A stretch of 64,000 nucleotides of DNA, from positions 64,001 to 128,000 of the forward strand of contig CAVSLC010000005.1 in NCBI GenBank assembly GCA_963728565.1, given 5' to 3'. The stretch comes from an uncultured delta proteobacterium (GTDB taxonomy: Bacteria > Desulfobacterota > Binatia > UBA9968). Made by a program: the position numbers and the translations under genes. A model generated the notes under the pieces. The model was given only the letters and a program-made list of their open reading frames with translations. It was not told where the DNA came from and searched no databases. This document shows, in pieces, positions 12,279 to 62,711 of this stretch. Each line of letters opens with the position of its first letter. Position 1 is the stretch's first letter.

Positions 12279-12294
12279 GAGTGATCAACGTTTC

Positions 12295-28742: not shown

Positions 28743-29093
28743 GGGGGCGATGTGGGTTCGACGGGGGTGGGAAGTCAAAGTGGCATGCCGGGGTACTGTT
28801 GTCCCGTTAAACAAACAGACTGCAATTTAAACGCAGATAATTTCGAATACCAACTAGCTGCCTAACCGCAGTTAGCGTCCTACCGATCTTCTCCCACGAG
28901 ATCGGATAGGATGTCATTCAGTGGGATGGGCCGATTTCTCTGCCGGAGGGGATGAGGCTGAGATCTAAACCGGATGGCCCTTCGAAATCCTGCCGTTGGG
29001 AGTTCCAAGGGTGACACTAGAACATCGGCTAAGCATGTAGTCGCGGAGATGGAAGACCTTCGGACGGGGGTTCGATTCCCCCCGCCTCCACCA
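28743..29093 (+). ncRNA. ssrA: tmRNA; tag peptide (A)ADNFEYQLAA*
   Basis: 5' GGGGGCGA..GGTTCGAC, 3' T-arm and acceptor GGGGGTTCGATTCCCCCCGCCTCCACCA; tag ORF GCAGATAATTTCGAATACCAACTAGCTGCCTAA (28833-28865); follows smpB. Confidence 0.96.
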
Positions 29094-29800: not shown

Positions 29801-30670
29801 TCATTTGTCTCTTCCGTTCACTTCACCGCCACTTCTTTCGACTAATGCGAATCTTATCTTGCATTTCACGCCAGCGAGAATCCGGTGATTTGGATTCGGT
29901 AAATTAAGCCTAACGCGAAATGTGCCGCTTGCAGGATCGACGACTCGATCGACGATTGCGACCCGCACCTCGTGGGAAGAATGTGCAGGTGCCTCAAGGC
30001 TGATTTTGGCAGGCGTTCCCACCTCGACTTTGTTTCGCAATGAAACCGGCGCAAAAACTTCGACTCGTAGAGGATCGATCTGCGCAATTTTAACTATAGG
30101 CGAGTCGTTCTTGAACTGCCCGGAAACGAACTCCCCGGCCGACAGGAAACGCTCCACGACCACTCCGGTAATGGGGCTGCGGATGATATTTCGCGACAGC
30201 GCCACGTTTGCACGCTCCAGTTCGAGACTGGCAAGGCGCTGGTTGTCCATGGCACTGACGAGAGCCATTTCGGCGAGCTGCTTTTCCGTTTGCGCCTCTT
30301 GCAAGTCTGCGAGAGCGATAAGGTCGCGTTGGTACAATTTCTCTGCCCGGGCAAGCTTCAATGAGCTATATGTCAATCTCGCTTCTCCGGATTTGATCGC
30401 CGCTTCAACCGTCGCGCGGGCGCGCGCAACGGTTACGTTGGCGCTTTCCAGGCTCGAGTCTAGCTGAGCCACGATTTGGCCTTTTTTTACGAAAGCCCCT
30501 CGGTCCACATATACTTTCTCTAAGACGCCCTCGATAGGACTGCTGAGATGCACGACTTCCTGGGGAGCGACCAAGCAATCGAGGTTTCCGTCTTTTTCTG
30601 TCGTGTCGCCGCGGCCCAGCTGGCCGGACAACCAGAACATCGCCGCAAAGATCAACGTTCTCTTACGCAT
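29801..30670 (-). CDS. periplasmic adaptor (membrane fusion protein, RND/HlyD type)
   Basis: N-terminal hydrophobic signal; lipoyl-like halves SSPIEGVL..V.V..G..VKKGQ and IRSPITGVV; helical hairpin; VDPASGTFRVR. Confidence 0.88.
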   Translation of the reverse strand: MRKRTLIFAAMFWLSGQLGRGDTTEKDGNLDCLVAPQEVVHLSSPIEGVLEKVYVDRGAFVKKGQIVAQLDSSLESANVTVARARATVEAAIKSGEARLTYSSLKLARAEKLYQRDLIALADLQEAQTEKQLAEMALVSAMDNQRLASLELERANVALSRNIIRSPITGVVVERFLSAGEFVSGQFKNDSPIVKIAQIDPLRVEVFAPVSLRNKVEVGTPAKISLEAPAHSSHEVRVAIVDRVVDPASGTFRVRLNLPNPNHRILAGVKCKIRFALVERSGGEVNGRDK

Positions 30671-30682
30671 TTGTTCCTCCGG

Positions 30683-32675
30683 TTATTCAAGTTGTCCAGA
30701 AAACGCGAGCGCACCTTGCAACTGTTCATCGACTCTGAGGAGATCACGGCGTTTGCAGCCGTTGAACCGTTCCGCGGCACACTGTGCCCAGCGAAGCGCC
30801 AAGTTGCCGAGGCGCGGGTGGATGCGCTGACAGGGAGAAAGCGTTCCGGTCACCCACTGCCTGAATATCCCGCCATGCATACGGACGATTTCATCCTCGA
30901 GTGAAAAAATCATCTCATAGCTGCCGGGTTCGCCTTGGCGGCCACAGCGTCCCCAGAGCTGTCGGTCAACGCGACGCGAATCGTGCGGTTCAGTCCCGAT
31001 GACGTGCAGGCCTCCCAGCTCTGCCACGCCCGGAGCTAGGCGAATATCGGTGCCGCGGCCGGCCATGTTGGTTGCCACAGTGATCTGGCCCCATGCCCCC
31101 GCCTCGGCTATGACCGCGGCCTCTGCCTCGTCCTGGCGGGCGTTGAGCACACGATGCGGCACCCCGGCGGCGCTGAGTAGCTTGCTGCAAGATTCCGAGG
31201 CAGCTACCGACTTCGTGCCGATCAGGATAGGTCTCTGCCCGGTTCTAAGCTCGATGACCCGCGCAACGACGGCCTGCCACTTCGCTTCCGCTGTCGGGTA
31301 GACGCGATCACCCAAATGCACGCGGCGCGGCGCATGGTGTGTGGGTACGCGGACAACTGCCAGACCGTAGACCGACCAGAGTTCGCCGCGCACTTCACGG
31401 GCCGTGCCCGTCATGCCCGCGAGACGGCGGTAACGCCGAAAAAAGTGTTGGTAACTAATGCGTGACAACGGATCATTGGGCGCCGTGATCGCGCAGCCTT
31501 CTTTGATCTCGATCAGCTGATGCAGACTGTGCTCCCACGACCGATCTGCCATGATTCGCCCGGTATTCTCGTCGATGATTTGGATCTTGCCGTCCTTGAG
31601 CAAGTAGTGTGTGTCGCGGTGCATCAAGTGAAGCGCCGTCAAGCGCTTGACACACAAGCTCCTCGCGGCGCCAGGAGTTTACGAGAGAGGCATGGGACTG
31701 AAAAGATCCGACGGATCTTGCCCGACCGGACTCGGTTAAATGGATCAGCCGTTCACGCCCATCGATGGTGAAATCGATGCCGGTCTCGAGCTCGCCGGCG
31801 GCGCACCATGCGGCCTGATAATCGCCGCCGGCCTCCGCGCCATCGCTCGCCGGTTTGGAAATGATCAAAGGCGTGCGCGCCTCATCGATCATCACGCTGT
31901 CGGCCTCGTCCACTATGGCGAAATGCAGTCCTCGCAACAGCAACTGGGGTCGGTGCGACGGCGCAAGAGCGAGGCGCGCGATGTGTAATTGAAGCCGTCC
32001 TGACTGTTGCTTCAAAGCGATGCGATCGCGTAGATAGTCGAAAACCAGTTCGTTGTTTGTGCAATAGGTCACGTCACAAGCATAAGCTTGTCGGCGCGCC
32101 GCAGTGCTCATCCCGGAGGTGACGATGCCGACGCTGAGTCCGAGCGCGCGATACAGAGGGCGCATCAAGTTGGCATCGCGTCGCGCAAGATAATCGTTGA
32201 CAGTGACCACGTGGACGGGTAACCCCGCTAGAGCCGCGGTTGCACTGGGCAATGTCGCCGTCAATGTCTTGCCTTCTCCGGTATCCATCTCCGCGATCAT
32301 GCCGTTTAGCAGAATCCAGCCGCCCATGACCTGTACATCAAAGGGTCGCATGGCGAGCACGCGGGCAGCGGTTTCCCGGATGAGCGCGAATGCTTGCGTC
32401 ACTATTTCAAACTTCCAGGTGTGACCCCGCAGGTGATGGCGCAATTGCTCGGCGCAGGAGCGCAGCTCGCTGCTGTCAAGTGTCTGGAGTCGAAGGCCCT
32501 GAATCGACACGGCTTCAACAAAGCGTTGACAATGGAGTGCATGAATACGGAAATAGCGGACTGCCGGGCCAAGCAGGCGCGCGCAAGCCCGGTCGAGGCG
32601 ATTCTCGAAAGTGTGCCGGCGCTCCGCATATGCGCCACGCGGAAGCCCCATCGCTGGAAAACGCACGTCAGACAT
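30683..32675 (-). CDS. short SecA paralogue (~663 aa; one apparent extra base near 31641)
   Basis: EMDTGEGKTL, VHVVTVNDYLARRD, TNNELVFDYLRD, DEADSVMIDEARTPLIIS in ORF 31473-32687; GMTGT, VLNAR, ATNMAGRGTDI, SRRVDRQL.GR.GRQGEPG in ORF 30683-31657. Confidence 0.88.
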
Positions 32676-34812
32676 GGAACCTCGCAAGAAAAAGCTGACG
32701 CAACTGGCGATGCCAGCGGCTCGCTATAGGCTCCCAGCCATGGTCGAAGCGCACATGTACTCGTCCGCCGAACGACTGAATGCTGGCGCTTGCTGGAAGC
32801 GCCAGGTCGAACTGAAAAGTTTTTTCGACAGTCCTCAATCCATCCTTGTCGAGCGGATCGACCGCCATCCTGCCGCCGCCCTGATTGCCCAATGCGCTCG
32901 TCGGCAATTTTTCGCTGGCGGCAGGAACCTCGCGTTGTACCGTGGTCGTAAAGATCTCGTGAGGACGACCGATCAATCGCAGCTCGATGCGCTTGGTTTG
33001 ATGGCGCACCAGCTCGACATCGGCTTCGGGAACCACCACACGAGCGGTAAGCGCAGAGGTATCGAGTACGTATCCAAGCGTCGCGCCCTGATTGATAAAA
33101 CGCCCGGGCAGCTTTGCGGCATCAGGAATTTCAAAAATGCCGTCAGTACGGCTCCGAATCAAAAGATCGTTTACTCGTTCAGTGGCACGAGCGAGTCGTT
33201 GCTCGACGTGGACGATCTCGTCTCGCACAATCTGCGCTTGGCGGATGTCAATCAGGAGGAGCGCGCGATAGCGGGTATCCAGTTCGTCGAGCCGGGCTTG
33301 AAGCACCCTGACTCGGGCGGTGAGCTGCGGGTCGTAACACTCAATAAGAATATCGCCGCTTCGAACTGGCGAACCGGCGCGTGCGACAATGCGCTTGACG
33401 AACCCGTCGGTTGCCGCGCGCAGACGCGCCTGTTCGGGGAGCCAGATCACGCCTTCGGCGCCGGTGCGGAGGGGTAGCGGCAGCCAAAGGATCGCGGTCG
33501 ACAGAGCAACCGTCGCCAGCAAGCTTGTAGCTAGAGCTCGGCGGCGAACGATGCGAATGCCCGGGTCGGTGCATAAGTAGACTAAAGCTTTGACCAGCGG
33601 TCCGAGTATCCAGAGGACGATACCCGCCAGTGCCAACAAAACACCCACGAAGAAAAACTTGCCGGCAATAAAGAGCGTAATCGCCGCGAGGGCGAAAAGC
33701 CGATACAGAAACGCGGCGATGGGATACACCGTCAGCCAGACTCGTTCGGCGAGCTCTGCGGTTTGCGCTTGTGCGTCCTGACGGCCGAACACATAGCGCT
33801 CGCAGAGATACACCAGATAACGATGCGAGCGGGCACGCAGGTTCGGTATTTCCAGGTAGTCGGAAAGCATGTAGTACCCGTCATAGCGCAGCAGAGGGTT
33901 GGCATTGAAGAGGATCGTGGATATACCGGCAAGGAATAGGACGTTATATGCTGCCGTTCGGATCGCACCCGCTTCGATGTTCAACCAAAGAAACAGCGCG
34001 CATGATGCGATAAACAGTTCCACCATCATCCCCGCGGCGCCAACTACAATACGCTGCCACTTGGACGGAAAGGCAGAGGCGGACGAAGCATCAACATAGG
34101 GTATGGGTTGGAAGGCGATCAGCAGCACTCCCATCTCATGGACTTCCCCCCCATAGGCTCTTGTCGCCAAGCCGTGGCCGAACTCATGGAGAATCTTGAT
34201 CAGCGGAAATAGCAGCCACAAAACTGCGATATTCTGAGGCGTGAGAATCCGATCGGCGACCGTCAGGGTCAACTCCGACCAGTGGATTGCCGCTTGGCTT
34301 GCCGCCGTTCCGACCACAGCAAGCCATAGGATCAGAGCGCCGCGACATAGCAGTGGCCGTACCAGCGGCAGCAATGGCGTCATGATCCGTTCTGGATCGA
34401 AGAGCGGAAATTTCGTCGAAAGTGGATTCAGGAACCGGCTCTGTCGCTCCGTGCGGCACTCCCGTTCCTGACGCAGGAGCAGTTCCGCAAGATCCGCAGG
34501 GACGTCGCACTGCATCAGCTCTCCAGTGTGCAGCTGAGCCAAAAGTTGCACAACATCATTCTGTGTCGGCGCCTGGTCGCCGAGGTTTGCTTCCGCGGCT
34601 TGATACATTTCCTGCACTGTCAGGCTGCCGTTCATCAGGCCTAGGAAAGCGTACGCAGCCGAGGAAACGCGGTGTTGGCGGTATCTCGTATGATCCTGGA
34701 GCACGTACCAGCGTTTTCCTCGATACTGATGGCGCCGCACTTCCACGTGGCTGCGCAGGCGCGGCCGGAGAGGAGCAATGCGGTACCAATACGGATGGGA
34801 TAACTGCGGCAT
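32668..34812 (-). CDS. fusion of PqqD/RRE-like domain, M50 (site-2) intramembrane peptidase and HlyD-like adaptor domain
   Basis: HEFGHG (HExxH) and NANPLLRYDGYY (NxxPxxxxDG) in a multi-TM region; N-terminal wHTH pattern (..MNGSLTVQEM..TQNDVVQLLAQL); C-terminal ATDGFV..G..V..GD, hairpin, IRSRTDG. Confidence 0.85.
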   Translation of the reverse strand: MPQLSHPYWYRIAPLRPRLRSHVEVRRHQYRGKRWYVLQDHTRYRQHRVSSAAYAFLGLMNGSLTVQEMYQAAEANLGDQAPTQNDVVQLLAQLHTGELMQCDVPADLAELLLRQERECRTERQSRFLNPLSTKFPLFDPERIMTPLLPLVRPLLCRGALILWLAVVGTAASQAAIHWSELTLTVADRILTPQNIAVLWLLFPLIKILHEFGHGLATRAYGGEVHEMGVLLIAFQPIPYVDASSASAFPSKWQRIVVGAAGMMVELFIASCALFLWLNIEAGAIRTAAYNVLFLAGISTILFNANPLLRYDGYYMLSDYLEIPNLRARSHRYLVYLCERYVFGRQDAQAQTAELAERVWLTVYPIAAFLYRLFALAAITLFIAGKFFFVGVLLALAGIVLWILGPLVKALVYLCTDPGIRIVRRRALATSLLATVALSTAILWLPLPLRTGAEGVIWLPEQARLRAATDGFVKRIVARAGSPVRSGDILIECYDPQLTARVRVLQARLDELDTRYRALLLIDIRQAQIVRDEIVHVEQRLARATERVNDLLIRSRTDGIFEIPDAAKLPGRFINQGATLGYVLDTSALTARVVVPEADVELVRHQTKRIELRLIGRPHEIFTTTVQREVPAASEKLPTSALGNQGGGRMAVDPLDKDGLRTVEKTFQFDLALPASASIQSFGGRVHVRFDHGWEPIASRWHRQLRQLFLARFHV

Positions 34813-34824
34813 AGAAGAATCAGG

Positions 34825-36684
34825 CTACGGCGCCCAGGACCAAGCAAAGAGACGCAGCCAATCCAAAGCGCGATGGGTCCAGATCCAAATCAAACGACGA
34901 CGGCCGATCTCAATCTTAGCGACTCCTTCCATACCGGGCCGTAACTGTGGCAGAGCTTTTTCCAGTGCAGCCTCTACCCGGAAATAATTGCGTCCTTCGC
35001 TTGCCGCCGATACCGGTGTGATTTTCTGCACTCGGAAAGGCAAAGGCCTGGTTGGAAATGCAGCCAACGCGAGATCTCCGCGCTGTCCGACCACGACTTC
35101 CGCGGCGTCGCGTTCATCGACCTGCAGGACGACGCGGTAGGTGTTCAGCGGCGCGACTTCATACAAAATCTGGCCGCGCTCAGTCGGCGCGCCCATGGAT
35201 TGGCTCAGGTCGCCGCTGATCACGACGCCGTCGATTGGAGCGAGAAGGTGAGCGCGCGAGATTTGGTCTTCGATTAGGGCGAGCTCTGCCTCGGCTTGGG
35301 CGACCTGCGCCGCAGCGATCTTCACCTGGGACGCATTCTGCTGCGCCAGTGCGACGTTGTACTGCTTGCCGTACTGCTCTTTTTGGCTAAGCCATTTGAG
35401 CTGTTCGAGATTGAGATCGCGAGTATCCAGGGTCGCGAGAATTTCCCCGGCTTGCACCGTATCACCGGGGCGCGCTCTTGCGGTCGCAATGTAGCCATTG
35501 AAAGGCGCGACCGCGACCCGCTGGCTCTGTGCCTCGATCAGCATCTTGGTGGAAACGCGATATTGACCATTGGCGAAGATGAAAAACAGGATTACTGCGG
35601 CGGCCACCGCACTGCCGAACTTTGCTGCGGCATGGTCTGGTCCGACGACAGCGTTCCATCGCTCTCTTATTGCGTCCACGCCGCGGATTCTGAGCGGGCG
35701 TTCATCGCGCTTTTTCATTTCTAAAATCGGTCCGACGAGCGCTGCAATCGTTTCGCACATTTCGACGGTAGCGCCTTCCAAGGGACGATCGGCAAGCCGC
35801 TCCAAAGTAAGCACGCCGTAGATTTCGCCCTCGCGACCCAACGGCACAGAGCAGATTGCGCTGCTGCCGTGTCGTTGTGCGAGTTCCTGATGATGTTGAG
35901 CGATTGAACATAGTCTGTCTGAACTGGGCGGATACAGGATCGGTGTCTCCTGATCACAAGCTTCCTCCATAGCGGCTTCTATGGCGCGACTCAGGTTTGT
36001 GCGTTTGCCGAAGCGCGCATTGTGGGAAATCGCTTGCAGATTGATCCGGTCTTCGTCGCGAAAGCCCAGACTGACGCGCTCGCAAAACAGCCGTGTTGCC
36101 AGATCCGCTACCAACGCGGTGGCGGCCCGATGAAAGCTCTTCTCTTCGACGACAACCGCAAGTGCGTGGAGAACACCCTGTAAGCGCTCCTTCTGACGCT
36201 CGCTTTCGAGATATCTCTGGCGCTCCAGCATGACTTCCAGCCAGGCTGCGCCCCAGGAAAGCTGCTGGAGCGCGGTCTGGAGTGCGGCGGACGAACGCGG
36301 CGTGAGTCTAAGAACGACAACACCGAAGAGCTGCGGGCCGATCAAGATCGGATATGCGAGCTCATGGAATTCCTGAATGGCGCCGCCCGGACTACTGCGG
36401 ACTTTACGTTGAATGATCAGCGGCGACCGTTCTCGGATGGTCTGTTCGGCGGAAGCATTTAGTTCATCGGAGACTTTGTCGCCCGGCGGCCAACAGCCCT
36501 TGATCTTATAGGGGCCTTCATCGGGAGCGCCGATCAGCACAGATGCTGCGCTCACGCCGCCAATCAGCTGGCATTGATGCACAATCCAGGCTGCACAAAA
36601 ACCGTCCTCCGTGACCGCTCCGGGGACTCCCGTCCAGAGGGAATCTTGGCTGTTATTCGCTAACGCAGCATGGGCAGAACTCAT
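34825..36684 (-). CDS. GAF-domain-containing HlyD-family periplasmic adaptor
   Basis: Two GAF-like segments (ELAYPILIGPQLFGVVVL; ICSVPLGREGEIYGVLTLER), one TM, MFP motifs APFNGYI..PGDTV..GE.L and APIDGVVISGD; start at ATG 36684 assumed. Confidence 0.83.
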   Translation of the reverse strand: MSSAHAALANNSQDSLWTGVPGAVTEDGFCAAWIVHQCQLIGGVSAASVLIGAPDEGPYKIKGCWPPGDKVSDELNASAEQTIRERSPLIIQRKVRSSPGGAIQEFHELAYPILIGPQLFGVVVLRLTPRSSAALQTALQQLSWGAAWLEVMLERQRYLESERQKERLQGVLHALAVVVEEKSFHRAATALVADLATRLFCERVSLGFRDEDRINLQAISHNARFGKRTNLSRAIEAAMEEACDQETPILYPPSSDRLCSIAQHHQELAQRHGSSAICSVPLGREGEIYGVLTLERLADRPLEGATVEMCETIAALVGPILEMKKRDERPLRIRGVDAIRERWNAVVGPDHAAAKFGSAVAAAVILFFIFANGQYRVSTKMLIEAQSQRVAVAPFNGYIATARARPGDTVQAGEILATLDTRDLNLEQLKWLSQKEQYGKQYNVALAQQNASQVKIAAAQVAQAEAELALIEDQISRAHLLAPIDGVVISGDLSQSMGAPTERGQILYEVAPLNTYRVVLQVDERDAAEVVVGQRGDLALAAFPTRPLPFRVQKITPVSAASEGRNYFRVEAALEKALPQLRPGMEGVAKIEIGRRRLIWIWTHRALDWLRLFAWSWAP

Positions 36685-36703
36685 GATCGTCCGGCCACAG
36701 ACG

Positions 36704-36719
36704 GCAAGAACTATGCCGA
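36704..36719 (-). promoter_or_regulatory. possible sigma54 (-24/-12) promoter of the export operon
   Basis: Minus strand TCGGCATAGTTCTTGC = GG-N10-GC; very close to the assumed ATG, so uncertain. Confidence 0.35.
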
Positions 36720-36903
36720 CATTCCAGCAAGCGCGCTCTCTTGGTTGAGTCAGGGTTGTCGTCGCAGAGCGCGCCTCACAAGGAATCCAAGGGTGAAGAA
36801 ATCCCGAAAGACGAATCATGGAGCCCGGCAAGGTGAGTGAGTTTATGGCGAGACATGACCTCAAATCTGCCAGTTGCTGTGCGGAAACGTACGAAAAATG
36901 AGT

Positions 36904-37971
36904 TCAGGGAGACTCGGCGGCCGGTGCAAGACCAATCTCGATCAGAAAAACAGGACCATGATCGTGATTGCTCACCGTCACCGTGCCGTCGTGAGCCTCG
37001 ATGATCTGCCTGGAGATCGCCAGGCTCAAACCGGAGCCTTGATGGTGATGCGCGATATCCTGCACGGATAGCAGGTTGAAAATTTCTTCCTGCTGCTCCA
37101 TCGGAATCTTCTCTCCGTCGTTGGCAACTTCGATCCGCAGTCGGTCTCCAAGTCTATGAGCGCGTACCTCGACGGCACTGCCTTCGCGAGCGAATTTCAC
37201 GGCATTGTCCAACAGCGCGCTGATCGCAATCGTGAACAGCTTTAGATCTGCATCAATGCGCAAAGTTTCGTCGCCGGAAAACCGCAACGTGCAATGTTGT
37301 TCATTTTGCTGAAATGTTTGCCGATACTCTGAAAAGAATAAGCTGAGCGGGGCATTGGCCTTTTCGATCCGAACCTCTCCTAACTTTAGATCGCTTAACA
37401 AGAGTGTCTTTTCGCACGATTGCAAGAGTTTTTCGCCGCATCTCTGAATCTCATCGACAAATGTTTTTTCCTCGCCGACGAGGTGTTCGCTTTCACGCAG
37501 CAACCGAATGTAGCCAAAGATCGCGGTGAGCGGAGTGCGCGTTTCGTGACTGAGCAGATTGATGAGATTGGTCTTGATTTTGTTGATTTCCTCGGCATTT
37601 TTCAGCCGAAGAAAGACCTTTACCTTGGCGAGGAGTTCGCTCGCTTCGAACGGTTTCATGATGTAGTCATCCGCCCCAATTTCGTATCCGAAAAGTCTAT
37701 CTTCAAGCAACATTTTCGAGGACACGAGAATGATCTTCAGATTCGAAAACACGTTATTGCTCCGAATCCTGCGACACACTTCATATCCATCGATATCGGG
37801 CATCATGATATCCAGCAAGATTAGATCGACTTTCGGGCAAGTATTTAAATAAGCGAGCGCTTCTTCGCCCGAGGAGACGAGATGGATGGTATGTTCGTTC
37901 TCCAGGATCAGCCTGTAAATTTCCAAAATAATTGGGTCGTCGTCGACCGCCAGGATGGTTGCCGTCATCAT
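36904..37971 (-). CDS. cytoplasmic receiver + histidine kinase hybrid (REC-HisKA-HATPase)
   Basis: ILAVDDD..DLILLDIMMPDIDG..KPF; SHETRTPL; LLDNAVKF; GSGLSLAIS. Confidence 0.9.
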   Translation of the reverse strand: MMTATILAVDDDPIILEIYRLILENEHTIHLVSSGEEALAYLNTCPKVDLILLDIMMPDIDGYEVCRRIRSNNVFSNLKIILVSSKMLLEDRLFGYEIGADDYIMKPFEASELLAKVKVFLRLKNAEEINKIKTNLINLLSHETRTPLTAIFGYIRLLRESEHLVGEEKTFVDEIQRCGEKLLQSCEKTLLLSDLKLGEVRIEKANAPLSLFFSEYRQTFQQNEQHCTLRFSGDETLRIDADLKLFTIAISALLDNAVKFAREGSAVEVRAHRLGDRLRIEVANDGEKIPMEQQEEIFNLLSVQDIAHHHQGSGLSLAISRQIIEAHDGTVTVSNHDHGPVFLIEIGLAPAAESP

Positions 37972-38113
37972 ATATTGCTCATGCGCATCCGCCGTATCTT
38001 AACACGAGATCAGAAGCAGGACTGGAAATTTCAATTTGCTGTCCCTCGCAATCCTGTTGGCTCCGGCATTGCGTAAACCGCACTTCCTTTAGAAGAGGGA
38101 ACGACAAAACCGT

Positions 38114-41100: not shown

Positions 41101-44100
41101 CCCCGAGCAGTTGCCACGGATCCGAACGGCAATTTTGTTGTGGTCTGGTCGAGCAAAAATCAAGACGGTGACGGCTGGGGGATTTACGCGCAAAGATACA
41201 ACGCCGCCGGCGCGGCACAGGGTGGCGAATTCCGCATCAATACCACTGTCGTGAAAGATCAGCTGCATGCGTCGGTGGCCATGGACGATGCCGGCAACTT
41301 CGTCGTTGTTTGGGCGAGCAAGGACCAAGACGGCGACAATTGGGGAGTCTACGCCCAACGCTACGATTCGAGCGGTGTTGCACAGGGCGGCGAGTTTCAA
41401 GTCAACACAAACATCACCAAGGAGCAACTCGGGCCCAGCATCGCCATGTCCGCCGACGGCGACTTTGTGATCGTATGGTCGAGCAATGATCAGGACGGAG
41501 ACGACTGGGGCGTTTACGCCAAGCGCTATTATGCGGCCGGAATGGTGCAAGGCGGTGAGTTCCGCGTCAATACCACCACCACCAAAGATCAGACCGCCTC
41601 CGCGGTGGCCATGGATGCCGAAGGCAATTTCTCGTCACTTGGTCCAGCAAAGACCAGGACGGAGATAACTGGGGAGTTTACGCTAAGCGCTACAATGCCG
41701 CCGGACTGGCGCAGGGCGGTGAGTTCCGCGTCAACACGTATACCGGCAAAGAGCAAGAGTTTCCCTCGGTCGCAATGGACGCCGCCGGCAATTTCGTCGT
41801 CACCTGGTCGAGCAAAGATCAGGACGGCAACAACTGGGGCATTTATGCCAAGCGCTATGACGCCGGCGGCGTCGCCCAGGGAGCCGAGTTCCTGGTCAAT
41901 CAGACGACAGCAATGAGCAGCTGCACTCGTCGGTCTCGATGGACGCCGACGGCGATTTTGTCATCACCTGGTCGAGCAAGGATCAGGACGGCAATGGTTG
42001 GGGAGTCTACGCACGCCAATACACGGCAGACGGCACGGCCAAATCAGGTGAGGTGCTGATCAATACGACGACTGCGGGGGACCAGCATCTGTCTTCTGTC
42101 GCGATGGATGCCAGCGGCGACTTCGTGGTTGTCTGGACAGGCGCCGGGCCGGGCGACTCGCTGGGCGTGTTCGGACAGCGCTTCACTATCTCCAGCCCTT
42201 TGACGTTCGCCGCCGGCGATGGAACCCGCGACGCAACGATGACTTTTCGTGGAACGGCGGCGGAGGTGAATGCGGCGCTCGATGGCTTGGTCTTTACGCC
42301 GACTGCCGGTTTCAACGGCCTTGCTTCCATTACGGTCAGCACAAGCGACTTGGGGAACAGCGGCACCGGCGGTCCTCAGTCAAGCAGCGCCACCGTCAAC
42401 ATCGCTGTCGGAAATGGAAATCTCCCTCCTACCCTGAACCTCACAGGCGGTGCGGTCACTTATACCGAGAACGACCCGGCAACCGTGATCGATCCAGCTG
42501 CGACCGTGGGTGATCCCGACTCGGCAGACTTCGACGGTGGGCAGCTGAGTGTATTCCTGAGCGCGGGCGGCACGGACAACGACCGCCTCGGTATACGAAA
42601 CGAGGGCACGGGCGTGGGACAGATCGGCGTCTCAGGCAATATCGTCACCTATAACTTCGGCGCAGGCGCGGTGGCAATCGGCACGTTCGACGGCGGCATG
42701 GACGGTGTCACGCCTCTGGTGGTGACGTTCACCGCGAGTGCGACACCGGCAGCTGTCCAGGCGCTTGCGCGCAACATCACGTACCAGAACCTGTCCGACG
42801 ATCCGTCTACTTTGAATCGCATCGTGGAATTCACCCTGACGGACGGCGACGGCGGCACGAGCAGCGCGGCGAGTCGAAACATCAATGTAACCGCGATCAA
42901 TGACGCGCCTATGGCAACGAACCTCAGTGCCGGGGAGACTTACACAGAGGACACGGCGCTCGATCTGACCGATATCGTGGTGAGCGACGTGGACAGCGCC
43001 AATGTGACGGTGACTTTGACGCTGTCGGACTCGGCCGCCGGCAGTCTCAATACCGCCACCTCGGGAGCCGTGACCTCGACCTACAATGCCGCAACCGGCC
43101 TCTGGACAGCGAGCGGCGCGGTGGCGGACGTGAACACGCTGCTGGCAGGGCTGACGTTTAGTCCGGCGCGGACTACAACAGCGACTTCACCATTGCCACC
43201 AGCGTCGATGACGGCGTGGCGCCGGCCGTCACCGGAGTCAAAGCCATGACTGCCGTCGCCGTCAACGACGCGCCTATGGCAACGAACCTCAGTGCCGGGG
43301 AGACTTACACAGAGGACACGGCGCTCGAATCTGACCGACATTGTGGTGAGCGACGTGGACAGCGCCAATGTGACGGTGACTTTGACGCTGTCGGACTCGT
43401 CCGCCGGGAGTCTCAATACCGCCACCTCGGGAGCCGTGACCTCGACCTATAATGCCGCAACCGGCCTCTGGACAGCGAGCGGCGCGGTGGCAGATGTGAA
43501 CACGCTGCTGGCAGGGCTGACGTTTAGTCCGGCAGCGGATTACAACAGCGACTTCACGATTGCCACCAGCGTCGATGACGGCGTGGCGCCGGCCGTCACC
43601 GGAGTTAAAACCATGACCGCCATCGCCGTCAACGATGCACCGGTTCTGGTCAATAATACGCTGACCATCAACGAGGGCGGTAGCGTGACGCTTTCCGGCA
43701 CTGAGATGTCGGCGACGGATGTGGACAATGCGAGTGGGACTCTGACGTTTTCGGTATCCAACGTCACCGGCGGTCAATTTGAGCTTGTTGCCAGCCCGGG
43801 AGCAGCAATTACCACCTTCACGCAGGCCCAAGTAACGGCTGGCGCAGTTCGTTTCATCCACGACGGCGGAGAGGCTGCGCCGAGCTACAATCTGACCGTG
43901 TCTGACGGCTCTCTCACCGATGGTCCCGCCGCTGCCAGCATCACTTTCGCCAATATCAACGACGCGCCTATGGCAACGAACCTCAGTGCCGGGGAGACTT
44001 ACACAGAGGACACGGCGCTCGATCTGACCGATATCGTGGTGAGCGACGTGGACAGCGCCAATGTGACGGTGACTTTGACGCTGTCGGATCCAGCCGCCGG

Positions 44101-46113
44101 CAGTCTCAATACCGCCACCTCGGGAGCCGTGACCTCGACCTACAATGCCGCAACCGGCCTCTGGACAGCGAGCGGCGCGGTGGCGGATGTGAACACGCTG
44201 CTGGCAGGGCTGACGTTTACGTCCGGCAGCGGACTACAACAGCGACTTCACGATTGCCACCAGCGTCGATGACGGCGTGGCGCCGGCCGTCACCGGAGTC
44301 AAAGCCATGACTGCCGTCGCCGTCAACGACGCACCTATGGCAACGAACCTCAGTGCCGGGGAGACTTACACAGAGGATACAGCGCTGGATCTGACCGACA
44401 TTGTGGTGAGCGATGTGGACAGCGCCAATGTGACGGTGACTTTGACGCTGTCGGACTCGTCCGCCGGGCAGTCTCAATACCGCCACCTCGGGGGCCGTGA
44501 CCTCGACCTACAATGCCGCAACCGGCCTCTGGACAGCGAGCGGCGCGGTGGCAGATGTGAACACGCTGCTGGCAGGGCTGACGTTTAGTCCGGCAGCGGA
44601 TTACAACAGCGACTTCACCATTGCCACCAGCGTCGATGACGGCGTGGCGCCGGCCGTCACCGGAGTTAAAACCATGACCGCCATCGCCGTCAACGATGCA
44701 CCGGTTCTGGTCAATAATACGCTGACCATCAACGAGGGCGGTAGCGTGACGCTTTCCGGCACTGAGATGTCGGCGACGGATGTGGACAATGCGAGTGGGA
44801 CTCTGACGTTTTCGGTATCCAACGTCACCGGCGGTCAATTTGAGCTTGTTGCCAGCCCGGGAGCAGCAATTACCACCTTCACGCAGGCCCAAGTAACGGC
44901 TGGCGCAGTTCGTTTCATCCACGACGGCGGAGAGGCTGCGCCGAGCTACAATCTGACCGTGTCTGACGGCTCTCTCACCGATGGTCCCGCCGCTGCCAGC
45001 ATCACTTTCGCCAATATCAACGACGCACCTATTCTAATCAACAATCACTTGGTCATCCGGCAAGGCTCGTCGGCCGTGCTCAGCAGCGCAAATCTTTCCG
45101 CTTCGGATGTAGATAACCCTCCTGCCGGTTTGACCTTCGACGTGTCCAATATAAACGGCGGCCGTTTCGAACGAACTTCAGGCCCGGGTGTTGCCATTAC
45201 GAGCTTTAGCCAGGCAGAGGTAACCGGCGGCGGCATTCGCTTCGTACATACCGGCGGTAACACAGCGCCGAGCTACGATGTGACTGTGTCTGATGGCAGT
45301 CTTTCCGTCGGCCCGCTTCCAGCGGCAGTGGCTTTTGAGCCTCTGGATGACAGCGGCGAGGATCTCACGCCTACACAGACCACGCCGCTGGCACCGATAG
45401 CTCCGACGCTGCCCATACCGGAGATAACTCCACCGCTCGTGTTGCCTCCGAATTCCACCGGTGGCCCTGTCGGAAAGACTGACGTTGACACCAATCCTTC
45501 GAACGCGTCGCTCGGGGTGGATACGTTGGCTGAGGTGCAGCCCTATCAGAGTCCCGATAGCACGCAAGAAGCGAGTACGACAAGCAGGCCGCTGCCGGCC
45601 CGGACCACCGAAAAGGGGGCTGAGATTCGGGACGGCCTCTCTCTGAAAACAGATTCGTCTGTGACAGCGACCGATGTGACTGTCGATGAAACTGAGACAG
45701 ACACGGTTCAGCGCGGCGAACTGGGTTCAATCGTCGATGGGCAAAGTTTTGTGCAAGAGTTGAATAGGCTGCGAGAGGAACTTGCCGAGGAAATCGATTC
45801 GGAGAGACTTGTTGTCGGCTCCTCGGTTACCGTCGCGACGGGCTTCTCGATCGGTTATGTGCTCTGGCTGCTGCGCGGCGAAGTGTTGCTGACCAGCCTG
45901 TTGGCGTCCTTGCCCGCCTGGCGCCTCATCGATCCGCTGCCGGTGCTCTCGTTTGTAAGCAAGCGTTCCGAGGACGATGACGACGATGACTCCATTGAAG
46001 CCGCGGTCCAGAAAGGTGCAGCTATTGCTCCGGCCGAAGCCGACTCTGCGCGCGTGCCACAGCAAGGAACCCGATCGATCCGCTGGCGCATGGTGGCGGA
46101 GCCGGCTGAATAG
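38114..46113 (+). CDS. giant repeat surface protein/adhesin (~2,660 aa; about 7 apparent single-base frameshifts)
   Basis: Continuous repeat architecture across ORFs 38114-41254, 41140-41916, 41775-42059, 41939-43249, 43292-44272, 44277-44588, 44497-46113; LEPRxLL-like motif ([13 protein letters not shown]), DUF4347-like domain, NDAP-linked Ig/cadherin-like repeats, hydrophobic C-terminal motif. Start codon uncertain. Confidence 0.85.
38990..40813 (+). repeat. five tandem ~366 bp (122 aa) Ig/cadherin-like coding repeats
   Basis: Unit NLS..ETYTED..L.L.DIVV.D.D...[19 protein letters not shown]....TG.WSASGA..DVN.LLAGLTF.P; NDAP-type junctions at ~39716, 40082, 40448, 40814. Four more copies start at ~42900, 43262, 43958, 44323. 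Confidence 0.9.
41014..42190 (+). repeat. seven tandem ~165 bp (55 aa) coding repeats, predicted beta-propeller blades
   Basis: Unit EF.(I/V)NT....(D/E)Q...SVAMD..G(N/D)[12 protein letters not shown](I/V)YA.RY...G..QGG starting at ~41014, 41227, 41392, 41557, 41721, 41886, 42050. Confidence 0.85.
42902..45027 (+). repeat. near-identical ~1,060 bp tandem duplication inside adhesin gene
   Basis: 42902 onward matches 43961 onward, and 43921 matches 44982, with only scattered differences. Confidence 0.9.
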
Positions 46114-46121
46114 AAAGCGGA

Positions 46122-48668
46122 GTGCAGTTCGTGAAACGTCTGAGCGCAAAATGCCACATTGCTTTGGGGCTGACGTTTTTGCTGGTCAGCCTAGTGCTCG
46201 CTTGTTTCTATCTGGGGCTCATACCCGATCGCCTCGGCGCGATCCGCGCCGGTCGAGCGGCTCTCGCTGAGTCGATTGCTGCCAATAGCTCGGTGTTCAT
46301 CAGCCAATCGGATCTACGGCGGTTAGAGATGACGCTTCGATTTGTCGTCGCACGCAATCCCGAGATTCTCTCGGCTGCGATGCGGCGCGCCGACGGCGAA
46401 ATCGTTGTGAATATCGGCGACCACGGTCGCCACTGGCGTAATTTGCACGATGAACATTCGACTGACTCGCAGCTGCGAGTGCCGATAATGGCCAGTAAGC
46501 AGAAGTGGGGAAGCCTGGAACTTCGTTTGCAGCCTCTGACCCCGACCGCTTGGTACGGCTTCGTTTTCGACCCGAGATTCAAGTTGCCCCTATTTCTCGC
46601 GCTTTGCGCTTTTCCCCTATTTTACTTTTACCTGGGCAAAATGCTCCGCGAACTCAACCCGTCGCAGGCAATTCCAGCCCGGGTGCGCTCCGCGCTCGAT
46701 ACGATGGTGGAAGGTCTCCTGGTGATCGACGCCAACGGCCGTATCGTATTGGCGAACCAGGCTTTCGCTTCCATAGTCGGCAAGATACCCGATGAACTCA
46801 TCGGCCTGAGCGCGTCCGAGTTCTCATGGTCAAACAGCGACGGCACGGCGCTCGAGCAGGATTCAGCACCGTGGCTCAAAGCGCTTCGTGATCAGTGCCT
46901 GCAAAAGAATTTGATGGTCGCGCTCAGCGACTATCAGCAGAAGCGCCGCGCGTTCATCGTGAACTGCTCGCCGATCTTTGTCGGCAAAGGGCGGACCGGC
47001 GGTGTCTTAATCAGCTTGGACGATGTTACGGAACTGGAAGAGAAAGAGATCGAACTCCGCCAGTCCAAGGAAGCCGCCGAGATTGCCAACCGCGCGAAAA
47101 GCGAATTCCTCGCGAATATGAGCCATGAGATCAGGACGCCGATGAATGCCATTCTCGGCTTTACCGAGGTGCTCAGGCGCGGCTACGGCCAAAACGAGCA
47201 AACCTGGCAGAAGCACCTGCACACGATTCACTCCAGCGGCAAACATTTGCTCGAGTTGATCAATGACATCCTGGATCTGTCCAAAATTGAAGCAGGCGGC
47301 TTGCGGGTCGAGAAGATCCCGTGCAAACCGCACGAGGTCGTCCGAGACGTGGTTCAGGTCTTGTCGGTCAAAGCGCGGGAAAAATCCGTTTCGTTGGATA
47401 TCGAGTTCGCCAGTGCCGTACCGGAAACAATTCTGAGCGATCCTTCGCGCCTGCGTCAGATTCTCACGAATCTGGCCGGCAACTCCATCAAGTTTACCGA
47501 AGAGGGTGGGGTCAAGATTGTGCTTGGTCTGTCGCGGAGCGATAGTGACGCGCAACTGACTCTGGCGGTGATCGACACTGGAATCGGCATAGCCGAAGAC
47601 AAGCAGCAAGCGATCTTCGATCCTTTCGTCCAGGCGGACACGTCGGTTACCCGGAAATTCGGCGGCACCGGACTCGGACTCGCGATCAGTCGCCGGTTCG
47701 CGCAGGCTCTCGGCGGTGACATAACGCTGCGCAGCGAACCCGGCAAGGGGAGCGTCTTTACTGTCAGGATCGACACAGGACCGCTTGATGGCGTTCGAAT
47801 GCTCCAGCCCGCCGAAGCGTTGGCGGCGAGCGAACAGATTTCTACCGAGACTCGCCCTCGCTGGGATTTTCCTCCCGCCCGAGTGCTCGTGGTCGACGAT
47901 GGCGATGAAAACCGGGAGCTGGTCACGGTGGTTCTGCAGGAGATCGGGCTCAAAGTCGAGGGCGCTGAAAACGGCCAAGTGGCGGTTGCAAAGGCCCTCC
48001 AGGAGGAATTTGCGGTCATCTTTATGGACGTGCAGATGCCGGTGATGGATGGTTTGACGGCCACCCGTCAACTGCGCCTACGTGGGCTCAAGACCCCAAT
48101 TATCGCGTTGACCGCGCACGCGATGAAGGGCTTCGAAGAAGAGATTCTGGCCGTGGGATTTTCCGGCTATCTCACGAAGCCGATCGATATAGATGCCTTG
48201 ATCCACAAACTGGCCGAGTTGCTGCGAGCGCGCAGCATCGAAGCCACGCCTCCCGAGACTCAAGTAGCCGCAGGTCCAATTTCTGCGGCAATCGGCTCGG
48301 CCCGGCAAGCGGACGAGCCGCCGCTGGTCTCGCGTCTGGCAGCAAATAATCCGCGTTTCGTTCCAATCATCGAAAAATTTGCGCGACGTCTTACCGATCA
48401 GCTCGATGCCATGGCGAAGGCTTGGGAGGAAAAAAACTATGACGAGCTGGCGAGCCTCGGGCACTGGCTCAAAGGAGCCGGCGGCACCGTCGGATTCGAT
48501 GCTTTCACCGAGCCTGCCTACGTTCTTGAGCAATCGGCGAAGGGGCGCAAAGAGGAAGAGACCGAGGCGGCACTCGCGGAACTTCGCCGACTCGCCGGTC
48601 GCGTCAGGGTTGGCAGCGAAGCCCTGTCGCCCTCGATTGCTGTCGTTGCCGGCTCGGCCAACGGCTAA
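46122..48668 (+). CDS. membrane hybrid sensor kinase (2 TM, PAS, HisKA, HATPase, REC, Hpt)
   Basis: [19 protein letters not shown] (PAS); [14 protein letters not shown]; NSIKFT, DTGIGI, GGTGLGL; [10 protein letters not shown]; Hpt [13 protein letters not shown]. Confidence 0.93.
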
Positions 48669-48688
48669 CAACTGCAAGGAGCAGCTTT

Positions 48689-50542
48689 ATGAATGCCCAA
48701 CAAATTCAAATTGATTTTGCCGTAGGCGAACAGGAGGCATTGACCCGTACCGACACACTGGGGAACGCGGTGTCAAATAGCTCAGACGTCGACTACGGCG
48801 ATCTTTATGAGCCATTGCGCGACGCCACCGTGATGATGGTCGATGATGAGCCGACGACAATCGACGTCTTGCAGGCATTTCTTGAGAACGAGGGATACAC
48901 GCGATTCGTTACGATCAGCGACTCTAGTCGTGCGATGGATCTCGTTGCGAGCGAAAACCCCGACGTCCTGCTCCTCGATTTGCACATGCCGCAAGTGACC
49001 GGATTCGACATTCTGACGCTGCTCCGCCGCGATGCCCGCTTTCGGCACATGCCGGTGATTGTTCTGACGTCCGCCTCCGACCCCGCCACCAAGTTGAAGG
49101 CACTGAAGTTAGGCGCCAGTGATTTTCTGGCCAAGCCTGTGGATCCAAGTGAGTTGGCGCTTCGGTTGCGCAACACCCTTGCCGCTAAGGCCTATCAAGA
49201 TCGGCTTACATTCTATGATTCACTTACCGGTTTGCCTAATCGGCGCCTGTTCTGGGATCGACTCCTCTGGTCGCTGCGATGCGCCATTCGTGAAGGAACG
49301 ATGGGTGCGGTGCTGCACATCGACCTGGATCATTTCAAAAAGATCAATGACAGCTTGGGGCATGAGATCGGCGATGGCTTACTTGTAGAAGTTGCCCGAC
49401 GGCTGCAGTCGTGCATACCGGAGTTAAACGTCACTAGTGATAAGGGCGCCGCAGATTTGCAGCCGTTCCTTTCCCGTGTTGGCGGTGACGAATTCAACCT
49501 GTTGCTGCCCGAGATGAGGCGGGTGGAGGAAGTTGTCCGCACTGCCGGCGCGCTCCTCGCAGCCATGAAAGAACCTTTTTTCATCGATCAGCACGAAGTG
49601 TTCATCACTGGGACGATCGGGGTAGCCGTTTTCCCGAATGATGGAGAGTCCGGCGACGCACTCCTCCAGCACGCAGGCGTGGCGCTGAACCAGGCGAAGC
49701 AGCGGGGACGAAACACCTATGAGTTCTATTCGCCGAAAATGAACGCGCGGGCGCTCGAGCGCCTGAAACTTGAAAATGACCTGCGCCGTGCGTTGGACCG
49801 TGACGAATTGCTGCCGTTTTATCAACCGAAGGTGAATTTGCAAACCGGAAGAGTCGTCGGAGCGGAAGTGCTGCTGCGCTGGAACCACCCCTTCCGAGGA
49901 TTCATATCTCCTGCGGAATTCATCCCGTTAGCGGAGGAGAACGGCATGATTATCGACTTCGGCGCCTGGATACTCAATGCCGCGTGTATGCAAAACAAGG
50001 CATGGCAAACTGCGGGTTTGGAAAATATTCGCGTCGCAGTTAACGTCTCTCCACAGCAATTCCGCGACAGTAGCTTCTTGGCAAGACTGCGCGCGACGCT
50101 GGAGTCAAGCAAGCTTGCTCCGGAATTTCTCACTCTTGAACTCACCGAAAATACTATAATGGGAAATGCCCAACGCAACTTGGACCTTCTGAATGAGATT
50201 CGCGCGATGGGCGTCAAGCTCTCGGTCGATGACTTCGGAACGGGATACTCTTCGCTCAGTTACCTGAAAAGGCTGCCTCTTGATGAGCTCAAAATCGACC
50301 GTTCATTTATCATCGATATCCGGTCAGACAAAGATGATGCGCCGATTGTCACAGCGATCATCGCCATGGCACACAGCTTGAATTTACGTGTCGTGATGGA
50401 GGGAATCGAAACTGAACATCAGCTGGTGTTCTCGCGCGATCGCGGCTGTGATGAATATCAAGGATTTTTTTTCAGTAAGCCTGTACCTAGCCAAGAATTT
50501 GAGACTCTTCTTGAGAGATCGCTGACCCATGCCTCACAATAG
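48689..50542 (+). CDS. REC-GGDEF-EAL response regulator (diguanylate cyclase/phosphodiesterase)
   Basis: VMMVDDE..LLDLHMP..KP; DLDHFKKINDSLGH..RVGGDEF; EVLLRW, VNVS, ELTE, DDFGTGYSS, KIDRSF, EGIE, QG. Confidence 0.94.
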   Translation: MNAQQIQIDFAVGEQEALTRTDTLGNAVSNSSDVDYGDLYEPLRDATVMMVDDEPTTIDVLQAFLENEGYTRFVTISDSSRAMDLVASENPDVLLLDLHMPQVTGFDILTLLRRDARFRHMPVIVLTSASDPATKLKALKLGASDFLAKPVDPSELALRLRNTLAAKAYQDRLTFYDSLTGLPNRRLFWDRLLWSLRCAIREGTMGAVLHIDLDHFKKINDSLGHEIGDGLLVEVARRLQSCIPELNVTSDKGAADLQPFLSRVGGDEFNLLLPEMRRVEEVVRTAGALLAAMKEPFFIDQHEVFITGTIGVAVFPNDGESGDALLQHAGVALNQAKQRGRNTYEFYSPKMNARALERLKLENDLRRALDRDELLPFYQPKVNLQTGRVVGAEVLLRWNHPFRGFISPAEFIPLAEENGMIIDFGAWILNAACMQNKAWQTAGLENIRVAVNVSPQQFRDSSFLARLRATLESSKLAPEFLTLELTENTIMGNAQRNLDLLNEIRAMGVKLSVDDFGTGYSSLSYLKRLPLDELKIDRSFIIDIRSDKDDAPIVTAIIAMAHSLNLRVVMEGIETEHQLVFSRDRGCDEYQGFFFSKPVPSQEFETLLERSLTHASQ

Positions 50543-60973: not shown

Positions 60974-61163
60974 CTTCAATTCTCTTACATCCGCGACTTG
61001 TCAGAGTCAATGTGAGAATGGCTCGCTGCAATGGCGTGTGACATGTCTCACAGCAACAGCGGTTCAATCGGTTGAGGAGAGTCGAATTCGCGCTTTTTCA
61101 TGCTTGTGCTGCCTTGGATTGGGCACTCATCTAAAAATAGTATTTGGCTATCGCAAGTTGCTT

Positions 61164-62606: not shown

Positions 62607-62711
62607 GGCAGTAGACACTTTCATTTTACTCTCCGTCTGTTGTGTTGGAGCTGTAGTGCCAGTGATGTTGTAGGGGAAGTATGTAAAAAGCGGAAATGGG
62701 AATTCATCACT

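Follow-up and report, generated by a model that had tools for sequence, protein, structure and literature searches.

The closest described relative of the system considered here is a four-gene module of GAF-HlyD, Peptidase_M50-HlyD, SecA_DEAD and HlyD proteins, published in one computational paper (Kamneva, Poudel & Ward 2015, PLoS One, PMC4452313). The hypothesis put forward in that paper is that SecA_DEAD supplies the ATPase and the M50 protein the membrane part, replacing the ATP-binding cassette (ABC) transporter. A module of this kind was found in a stretch of 64,000 nucleotides (the window; positions 64,001 to 128,000 of contig CAVSLC010000005.1, assembly GCA_963728565.1, from an uncultured delta proteobacterium), where it lies beside the gene of a giant LEPR-XLL/DUF4347 adhesin. 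On balance, our analysis favours the view that this block encodes a dedicated machine, without an ABC transporter, for the leader-guided export and processing of the neighbouring adhesin. We also lean towards regarding the block as an example of a widespread module whose cargos are LEPR-leader proteins, from ~900 residues to more than 19,000. The features of the block are listed below, where MFP stands for membrane fusion protein (periplasmic adaptor), RRE for the recognition element of ribosomally synthesized and post-translationally modified peptides (RiPPs) and ORF for open reading frame.

29801-30670, minus strand: small MFP adaptor, 289 aa (HlyD_D23 E 2.1e-20; TIGR01730 RND_mfp 124.1 bits, cut-off 94.9)
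30683-32687, minus strand: short SecA-like ATPase (Pfam SecA domains; two overlapping ORFs in the window)
32668-34812, minus strand: fusion of RRE/PqqD-like, M50 and MFP parts (M50-MFP), 714 aa (Peptidase_M50, HlyD_3, weak PqqD)
34825-36864, minus strand: GAF-MFP, 679 aa (GAF E 1.5e-11; HlyD_D23 E 1.2e-17)
36904-37971, minus strand: REC-HisKA-HATPase hybrid, a response regulator/kinase (Pfam); first gene of the minus-strand operon
37972-38113: divergent spacer of 142 bp between the operon and the adhesin gene (from the sequence and the ORF coordinates)
38114-46113, plus strand: LEPR-XLL/DUF4347 cadherin-like adhesin, ~2,660 codons, at least five ORFs in the assembly
38279-38305, plus strand: adhesin leader motif
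~38477-38986, plus strand: adhesin DUF4347 domain
~45808-45954, plus strand: adhesin C-terminal hydrophobic anchor motif
46122-48668, plus strand: hybrid sensor kinase, PAS-HisKA-HATPase-REC-Hpt (Pfam)
48689-50542, plus strand: REC-GGDEF-EAL protein, which makes or breaks cyclic di-GMP (c-di-GMP) (Pfam)

The operon comprises five closely spaced minus-strand genes, from REC-HisKA-HATPase to the small MFP. A sequence-only reading of this stretch had described a tight operon of the last four, divergent from an 8-kb adhesin gene. These four genes and the divergence stand, but the head gene had been overlooked, and it is REC-HisKA-HATPase, not GAF-MFP, that faces the adhesin. The 12-bp gaps which that reading reported were recovered (30670/30683 and 34812/34825), as was the 8-bp overlap, provided that the SecA-like gene starts at its likely start codon, the ATG at 32675. 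The adhesin has LEPR-XLL, DUF4347 and cadherin-like content and the shortened SecA keeps its ATPase motifs, but neither gene is a single ORF in the window: the former falls into at least five ORFs and the latter is divided by a 1-nt frameshift. The Kamneva paper cited in the same reading is real and has the content attributed to it, and the mechanism that had been proposed is not new, being the hypothesis of its section 17. That interpretation is partly supported: the cargo link holds, and the roles it gave to the channel, the hetero-oligomer of MFPs and TolC are putative.

The present locus shares with the secondary SecA_DEAD locus of PMC4452313 the same four proteins, the idea of an operon and a patchy spread across phyla. 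Here too SecA_DEAD is shorter than the canonical protein and, to judge from same-genus genomes, an additional copy, and Peptidase_M50-HlyD, GAF-HlyD and HlyD genes form one cluster. The main text of that paper names no cargo (adhesin, cadherin, DUF4347 and cargo occur zero times), although its supplements might list neighbours, and the sections drawn on here make no mention of an RRE domain or an N-terminal leader. Type I secretion systems (HlyB-HlyD-TolC, or LapB-LapC-LapE with LapA) likewise span the envelope with HlyD/MFP adaptors, three of whose domains occur here, and a presumed TolC partner; likewise, the gene of the cargo, a huge repeat adhesin, stands beside the machine, and c-di-GMP-linked regulators are encoded nearby. 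Type I systems, however, have an ABC motor and channel, whereas the annotated ORFs of the block hold no ABC domain. Type I cargo carries a C-terminal signal and repeats-in-toxin (RTX) sequences, whereas this cargo has an N-terminal signal and no RTX nonapeptides. The present locus has a protease and a SecA-type motor, the implied direction is from N- to C-terminus, and a C-terminal anchor takes the place of the N-terminal plug. As the sequence-only reading had stated, there is no ABC transporter, resistance-nodulation-division (RND) pump, SecY or SecY2, and no TolC-type outer-membrane efflux protein (OEP), among the block ORFs scanned with Pfam and NCBIfam.

The accessory Sec systems of Gram-positives and mycobacteria (SecA2, SecA2/SecY2) resemble the locus in that a second SecA serves special, often very large, surface proteins. 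They differ in that the protein described here scores far below the SecA2 cut-offs, is truncated after the second nucleotide-binding domain (NBD2) and is accompanied by adaptors and a protease instead of SecY2. RRE-fused proteases of RiPP systems (daptide protease NF041824 and YydH/LiaK, NF058609) have the same PqqD-like fold before an HExxH site-2-type protease and the same logic of binding a leader and then cutting it. The RRE-like fold of M50-MFP as modelled (Z 8.9-9.3) and both catalytic motifs agree with this architecture, but M50-MFP is fused to a periplasmic adaptor, its presumed substrate has thousands of residues and its scores lie below both family cut-offs. Giant proteins of Omnitrophota and Actinobacteria with built-in SecA DEAD and preprotein-binding domains have also been reported, and their authors suggest that these domains help to export the giant protein itself (bioRxiv 10.1101/2023.11.21.568195). 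These giants likewise tie a SecA motor lacking scaffold and wing to giant-protein export, with the motor inside the giant, whereas here it is a separate protein of 667 aa whose gene shares an operon with those of the adaptors and the protease.

The link between the module and its cargo is carried by comparison across genomes. At least 600 related stretches were matched (one genome per species), of which 571 were confirmed as relatives; the best 80 were kept and viewed with 10-kb flanks, which giant ORFs often run off. The gene order GAF-MFP, M50-MFP, SecA-like, small MFP recurs in these 80 loci across at least seven phylum-level groups; all four parts reach at least 100 bits in 57 loci, and many of the rest are short contigs. 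Among 401 genomes of a phylum sample, 12 carry M50-MFP and 10 an LEPR-XLL match (LEPR-8K), seven having both and 386 neither (Fisher p = 2.9e-10, for genomes that are related and hence not independent). An order sample of 101 genomes gave four, four and three. In six of the seven co-occurring genomes of the phylum sample, an LEPR frame of 1,053 to 19,211 aa has its start or end within ~3 kb of the module. Thus, module and LEPR-XLL/DUF4347 proteins both co-occur and co-localise in the phylum sample, the order sample and the related loci, which was the check that the sequence-only reading had proposed. In the genome of the window itself there is a single module, a single DUF4347 gene and a single strict leader-motif match, all side by side, and a complete chromosome (G108) carries three M50-MFP and three DUF4347 genes paired one to one.

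Furthermore, 16 of the 80 loci contain the strict leader motif, and in each of them it lies close to the N-terminus of a large ORF next to the module. Among the 35 loci flanked by 6 kb or more on either side, 11 have an ORF with the LEPR motif, 14 an open-ended giant ORF (at least 1,737 aa), four a closed ORF of at least 1,000 aa and six none; as a rough background, 303 of 1,972 windows of 22 kb in the own genome hold an ORF of at least 1,000 aa. Single-sequence phmmer searches with the adhesin, which matched at the N-terminus in 12 and at the C-terminus in none of the 80 loci, undercounted this link until the giants were extended. When ten upstream giants were extended, three ran off their contigs, one had a masked N-terminus and six begin with the motif; the extended frames include ~8,260 aa (Falsiroseomonas bella, without DUF4347), 9,147 aa and 14,390 aa. 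Open frames that start with LEPR and end just upstream of a module reach 19,211 aa (G331:C2:23891...), 15,080 aa (G385:C1:94747...), 14,390 aa (G107:C11, loci L095/L096) and 9,417 aa (G164:C1:1915...), and these frames of 9,417-19,211 aa are among the largest bacterial frames.

The leader is the feature common to these proteins. In the adhesin of the window, the LEPR-XLL model (NF012209) matches residues 51-68 with 24.1 bits (cut-off 17) and DUF4347 (PF14252) residues 122-291 with 159.8 bits (E 6.4e-47); the adhesin also has cadherin-like repeats of ~122 aa and repeats of 55 aa. Among 4.18 million six-frame residues of the own genome, there is a single match to the strict leader motif, namely in this adhesin. 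An alignment of 28 N-termini consists of a basic stretch and then a LEPRLLLSAD-like core, in which E and R are invariant and L, S and A at least 90% conserved, and all neighbouring giants with a readable N-terminus begin in this way. The adhesin has no hydrophobic signal core in its first 110 aa (highest 12-residue Kyte-Doolittle mean 1.12), and none of the three frames of its gene encodes an RTX nonapeptide, in agreement with the sequence-only reading, which had seen neither a classical signal peptide nor RTX repeats. Some LEPR cargos elsewhere do have RTX-like repeats (L012, L005).

The M50-MFP protein combines an RRE/PqqD-like part (~residues 8-105), the membrane domain of an M50 site-2 protease and an MFP part (~445-714). 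The catalytic motifs HExxH (209-213) and NxxPxxxxDG (303-312) are invariant in 46 sequences. The Peptidase_M50 match reached 28.7 bits (cut-off 27.2), and among named families the N-terminal 400 residues come closest to the daptide intramembrane proteases of NF041824 (170.2 bits, below the cut-off of 300; E 6.9e-50). The AlphaFold2 model has a mean pLDDT of 86.8, and a model of the N-terminal domain one of 82.4; the first ~105 residues form three strands and three helices. In a full-library structure alignment, this domain was matched to lasso B1 proteins with bound leader (Z 9.3 and 9.1), to PqqD (Z 8.9 over 89 of 94 residues) and to RiPP recognition elements overall at Z 7-9.3. A Foldseek search with the whole model surfaced the adaptor part only, with MexA at E 4.7e-11, then MacA and AcrA; the C-terminal 270 residues match these adaptors, which dock to TolC or OprM. 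As far as such models can guide us, the likeliest role of the PqqD-like domain would be recognition of the N-terminal LEPR leader of the cargo, a role that the sequence-only reading had overlooked.

M50-adaptor proteins form a large family of very constant length, with at least 7,114 clusters at E <= 1e-20 among 8,000 candidates scored, most of 714-716 aa. Variant modules without a SecA-like gene are found at three loci. Two of them, L089 (G108:C1:4128000-4147999) and L090, show GAF-MFP, M50-MFP and small MFP followed by the LEPR/DUF4347 gene; at L091 (G103:C8) a divergent M50-MFP (27% identity) directly precedes the LEPR gene. We take the M50-adaptor to be the closest partner of the leader, because these SecA-less modules still pair it with an LEPR gene. 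In ten genomes of the order sample, frames of 409-521 aa (e.g., G034:C8:38657-39628, G064 and G063) align with the RRE-M50 part alone, at 25-33% identity, and have no adaptor; probably these frames encode a different kind of stand-alone RRE-site-2 protease. Genome G034 also has an LEPR frame of 3,283 aa, on a separate contig from its stand-alone frame.

The SecA-like protein carries SecA_DEAD (E 1e-86), P-loop_SecA (E 1.2e-54) and SecA_PP_bind (E 1e-15) domains, and its Walker A, DEAD, MTGTA and GRGTD motifs are kept. It covers positions 8-616 of the 787 positions of TIGR00963 with a score under the cut-off, and its C-terminal piece aligns to residues 336-648 of the 871 of Thermotoga maritima SecA. 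It thus consists of the first nucleotide-binding domain (NBD1), the preprotein cross-linking domain (PPXD), NBD2 and the start of the scaffold helix, with nothing beyond; the wing domain, the IRA1/two-helix-finger region and the C-terminal tail are missing. The two pieces scored at best 319.9 and 223.2 bits against SecA2 models (cut-off 1085). A canonical secA was not found in the own assembly (80.6% complete). The short SecA would be an extra copy, since canonical SecA was matched in all seven same-genus genomes (above the cut-off in four, in pieces in three, and ~1,200 aa long where complete), and we attribute the missing canonical gene to incompleteness of the assembly.

Among the other adaptors, GAF-MFP is laid out, by hydropathy, as a cytoplasmic GAF domain, one hydrophobic segment (~residues 412-430) and a periplasmic adaptor. 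Homologues at 100 bits or more are present in 74 of the 80 loci, and those of the small MFP in 63; the module adaptors score best against models of RND-type adaptors. An OEP (TolC-type) gene adjoins the module after the small adaptor in nine loci (e.g., L055:14990-16435), and in 20 loci a DUF3467 gene of ~140 aa immediately precedes GAF-MFP (e.g., L004:162-587). Neither a TolC nor a DUF3467 example used as query matched in the window, and no DUF3467 was found in the whole assembly. The own genome has one SecY, no SecY2 and six OEP genes, all outside the block, the nearest OEP gene being ~160 kb away on the same contig. Gene content suggests that DUF3467 and OEP genes are optional parts of the module.

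The window adhesin ends with a hydrophobic anchor and an acidic tail. Compared by eye, it and the five other complete shorter LEPR neighbours have the same hydrophobic C-terminal motif, which contains a proline-x-tryptophan as well as an arginine-glycine at its centre and precedes a charged tail; neither Pfam nor NCBIfam has a model that matched it, and the Atlas gave unnamed clusters only. This segment may tether the adhesin in the membrane. The C-termini of the larger LEPR neighbours, in those read, are different and have no anchor. In anchor-less giants, two recurring motifs were noted by eye near the C-terminus, 'IDW(G/N/Q)' and, a few residues before the stop, 'W(L)xxF(L/V)' (L027, L029, L037, L051, L057 and others; L006, L012, L015, L017, L022, L062), and these motifs could be a second recognition element. 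The region 46122-50542 downstream belongs, according to Pfam, to the kinase and REC-GGDEF-EAL genes and not to the adhesin. Homologues of the PAS-HisKA kinase occur in nine of the 80 loci (955 bits in L089) and of REC-GGDEF-EAL in 12 (675 bits in L089, 479 bits in L099), and both recur with the class of adhesin that has the C-terminal anchor. From this recurrence we infer a control of the adhesin system by c-di-GMP, as a prediction from gene content.

Taken together, these data can be arranged into the following scheme. The adhesin is made without a Sec signal. In the cytoplasm, the RRE-like domain of M50-MFP would bind the leader of the adhesin, the basic stretch with the LEPRLLLSAD-like motif; the short SecA-like ATPase would clamp the chain and drive its export N-terminus first, and the M50 protease would cut off the leader. 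M50-MFP, GAF-MFP and the small MFP would span the periplasm to a TolC-type channel encoded elsewhere. As the pore of the inner membrane, a ring of M50-MFP/GAF-MFP membrane domains would be our first guess and SecYEG the second. In this adhesin class, the conserved C-terminal hydrophobic segment would stay in the inner membrane and tether the fibre, mirroring type I adhesins, whose C-terminus exits first and whose N-terminus forms a plug that holds them. Timing might be set by the GAF domain together with the two kinases and the GGDEF-EAL protein. Whether all this amounts to a distinct secretion pathway of diderms is a tentative proposal, to which we give a little less than an even prospect. 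In such a pathway the RRE would read the LEPR leader, a wingless SecA would drive the chain from N- to C-terminus through an M50-MFP/GAF-MFP pore into TolC, the fused site-2 protease would clip the leader, the cargos would include proteins that rank among the largest of bacteria (frames of 9,000-19,000 residues beside the module), and the DUF4347 class would end with a C-terminal membrane tether.

The integrity of the genes bears on this scheme. The SecA-like gene appears in the window as two overlapping ORFs (32687..31473 and 31657..30683), split by one inserted nucleotide near 31641-31644. Four soil-metagenome runs, drawn from three studies, supplied contigs that were aligned to 29801-38700, a range that keeps clear of the long repeats. 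All four lack one base at 31641/31644, precisely at the frame shift, and one of them (X1) is otherwise free of differences over long stretches of the range. Since none of the four run contigs has the extra base, the SecA-like gene is intact in the population, with ~667 codons. The adhesin frame is broken at least five times in the window, with ORFs in changing frames, and repeat spacings of 367 and 2450 nt beside 366 and 2451 indicate single-base indels. Elsewhere in the window, housekeeping genes are split as well:

1509-2439: rsmH/mraW, two overlapping ORFs covering consecutive parts of one Pfam profile
61038-62043: prs (ribose-phosphate pyrophosphokinase), two overlapping ORFs covering consecutive parts of one Pfam profile
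62640-63666: ispE (GHMP kinase), apparently split likewise, with only the second ORF matched to a profile

Because these genes in the same 64 kb are split too, assembly indels are the likelier cause of the breaks in the adhesin; the frameshifts, including those of the adhesin, are probably assembly errors in an assembly with frequent single-base indels.

With regard to genomic context, the block of ~21 kb (29800-50600) has a GC content 4-10 points higher than its surroundings (0.57-0.62 at 30-50 kb of the window vs 0.50-0.55 in the flanks on both sides) and begins just 3' of two genes that are not part of the machine:

28201-28680: smpB, directly before ssrA (SmpB Pfam E 5.9e-61)
28743-29093, plus strand: ssrA, the gene of transfer-messenger RNA (tmRNA; ARAGORN), at the left edge of the GC-rich block

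The tag encoded by the tmRNA is ADNFEYQLAA. The module was not found in five same-genus genomes of the order sample. No direct repeat of at least 16 nt was found to link the ssrA side to the far end of the block, and no integrase turned up among the scanned ORFs. Because of its GC content, its position at ssrA and its absence from same-genus genomes, the block fits horizontal acquisition as an island at ssrA, as read from the sequence. Part of an ordinary dcw (cell-division/cell-wall) cluster, with ftsW, murG and murC (Pfam), lies at 8785-13665 of the window.

Part of this evidence could be accommodated in other ways. The SecA-like protein could be a targeting or motor paralogue that delivers the adhesin to ordinary SecYEG, with M50-MFP, GAF-MFP and the small MFP acting after the crossing, in removal of the leader and passage to TolC. 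The retained NBD1, PPXD and NBD2, the one SecY of the genome and the canonical SecA of same-genus genomes, which makes the short one an extra copy, would suit this explanation. Canonical SecA, however, uses its wing, IRA1/two-helix finger and C-terminal tail on SecY, and the SecA-like protein, which ends where the scaffold helix begins, has none of them; furthermore, the leader has no hydrophobic core and there is no SecY2, and we regard this route as unlikely. Alternatively, the module might be a device of regulated proteolysis and release, in which the M50 protease would cut the C-terminal anchor or the leader on c-di-GMP/GAF signals, as LapG/LapD act on LapA, and export would take another route. 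It is textbook knowledge that site-2 proteases cut in or beside membrane segments; the hydrophobic C-terminal motif is conserved in all six complete short neighbours, including that of the window, and the kinase and GGDEF-EAL genes recur. Such a device is nevertheless rather improbable: the larger neighbours whose C-termini were read have no anchor yet keep the module, the feature common to all neighbours is the N-terminal leader, and an ATPase with a preprotein-binding domain and three TolC-type adaptors would be left unexplained.

The breaks in the reading frames raise the question of decay, in which a frameshifted motor and a multiply frameshifted adhesin would be remnants on an acquired island. 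The frames are broken in the window, the GC-rich block lies beside ssrA and the module was not found in the five same-genus genomes, but the missing base in all four run contigs and the splitting of rsmH and prs, and apparently of ispE, which point to assembly indels, make decay in this organism quite improbable. The kinship of the N-terminal 400 residues of M50-MFP with the daptide protease family and the preference of the adaptors for RND-type models would be compatible with a system for maturation or efflux of RiPP-type or small molecules, next to large genes by coincidence or for regulation. The NF041824 score of 170, however, falls well short of the cut-off of 300, and no small precursor gene or modification enzyme is among the annotated ORFs of the block, where no search was aimed at small ORFs. 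With the strong co-occurrence and adjacency with LEPR proteins, and a leader motif that occurs once in the genome, beside the module, we consider a RiPP-type or efflux system very improbable.

Several observations weigh against the leader-guided export that we favour. The modules without a SecA-like gene may mean that the motor is shared between modules or dispensable; one chromosome has three modules and a single SecA-like gene. The pore of our scheme is a guess, and no site-2 protease is known to conduct proteins. An OEP gene stands beside the module in only nine of the 80 loci, and none is in the block of the window. Six of the 35 well-flanked loci have no large neighbour. Five of the 12 module-bearing genomes of the phylum sample have no LEPR match and three LEPR matches are without a module, in a set where some of the mismatched genomes are fragmented and two of the three module-less matches are weak. 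The adhesin frame is broken in the assembly, the comparison with run contigs covering 29801-38700. As to the recognition domain, winged-helix domains from unrelated enzymes take the two top rows of the structure alignment (Z 10.4 and 9.8), and a Foldseek search with the 135-residue RRE model gave no match at E <= 0.001, RRE proteins appearing only at E 0.04-0.5. The predicted complex of M50-MFP residues 1-445 with leader residues 30-95, for which our own alignments were supplied, lends the recognition step weak support and no more. Its score was 0.52 (runs 0.52, 0.50 and 0.55, agreeing in at least 51% of contacts, with a partner pLDDT of at least 48), and the best of three controls scored 0.00. 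Of 80 solved complexes, 58 reach the pass mark, as do 2 of 110 mismatched pairs; at scores of 0.60 or less, it is reached by seven of the 80 and by both mismatches. Finally, arrays of Methylobacterium extorquens reanalysed in section 17 of PMC4452313 showed, as reported there, only the GAF gene expressed in exponential growth.

A literature search, with subscription journals and supplements outside its reach, found no published link between the module and LEPR-XLL cargo and no experiment on the module. As far as that search extends, the cargo link and the leader recognition are not in print, the module itself being known from the one computational paper. Cultured carriers for genetics are at hand in Falsiroseomonas bella CQN31 (locus L062) and, as named in PMC4452313, Methylobacterium extorquens AM1. 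The leader motif and the M50-adaptor gene offer simple genome markers for such cargos. If our reading is true, it would give a concrete answer to how LEPR-XLL giants, which have no Sec signal and in this adhesin no type I signal, leave the cell. A SecA-family motor would be a new power source for a TolC-type conduit, in place of an ABC, RND or major facilitator superfamily pump, and leader recognition by an RRE in the style of RiPPs would reach beyond short peptides to proteins with thousands of residues.

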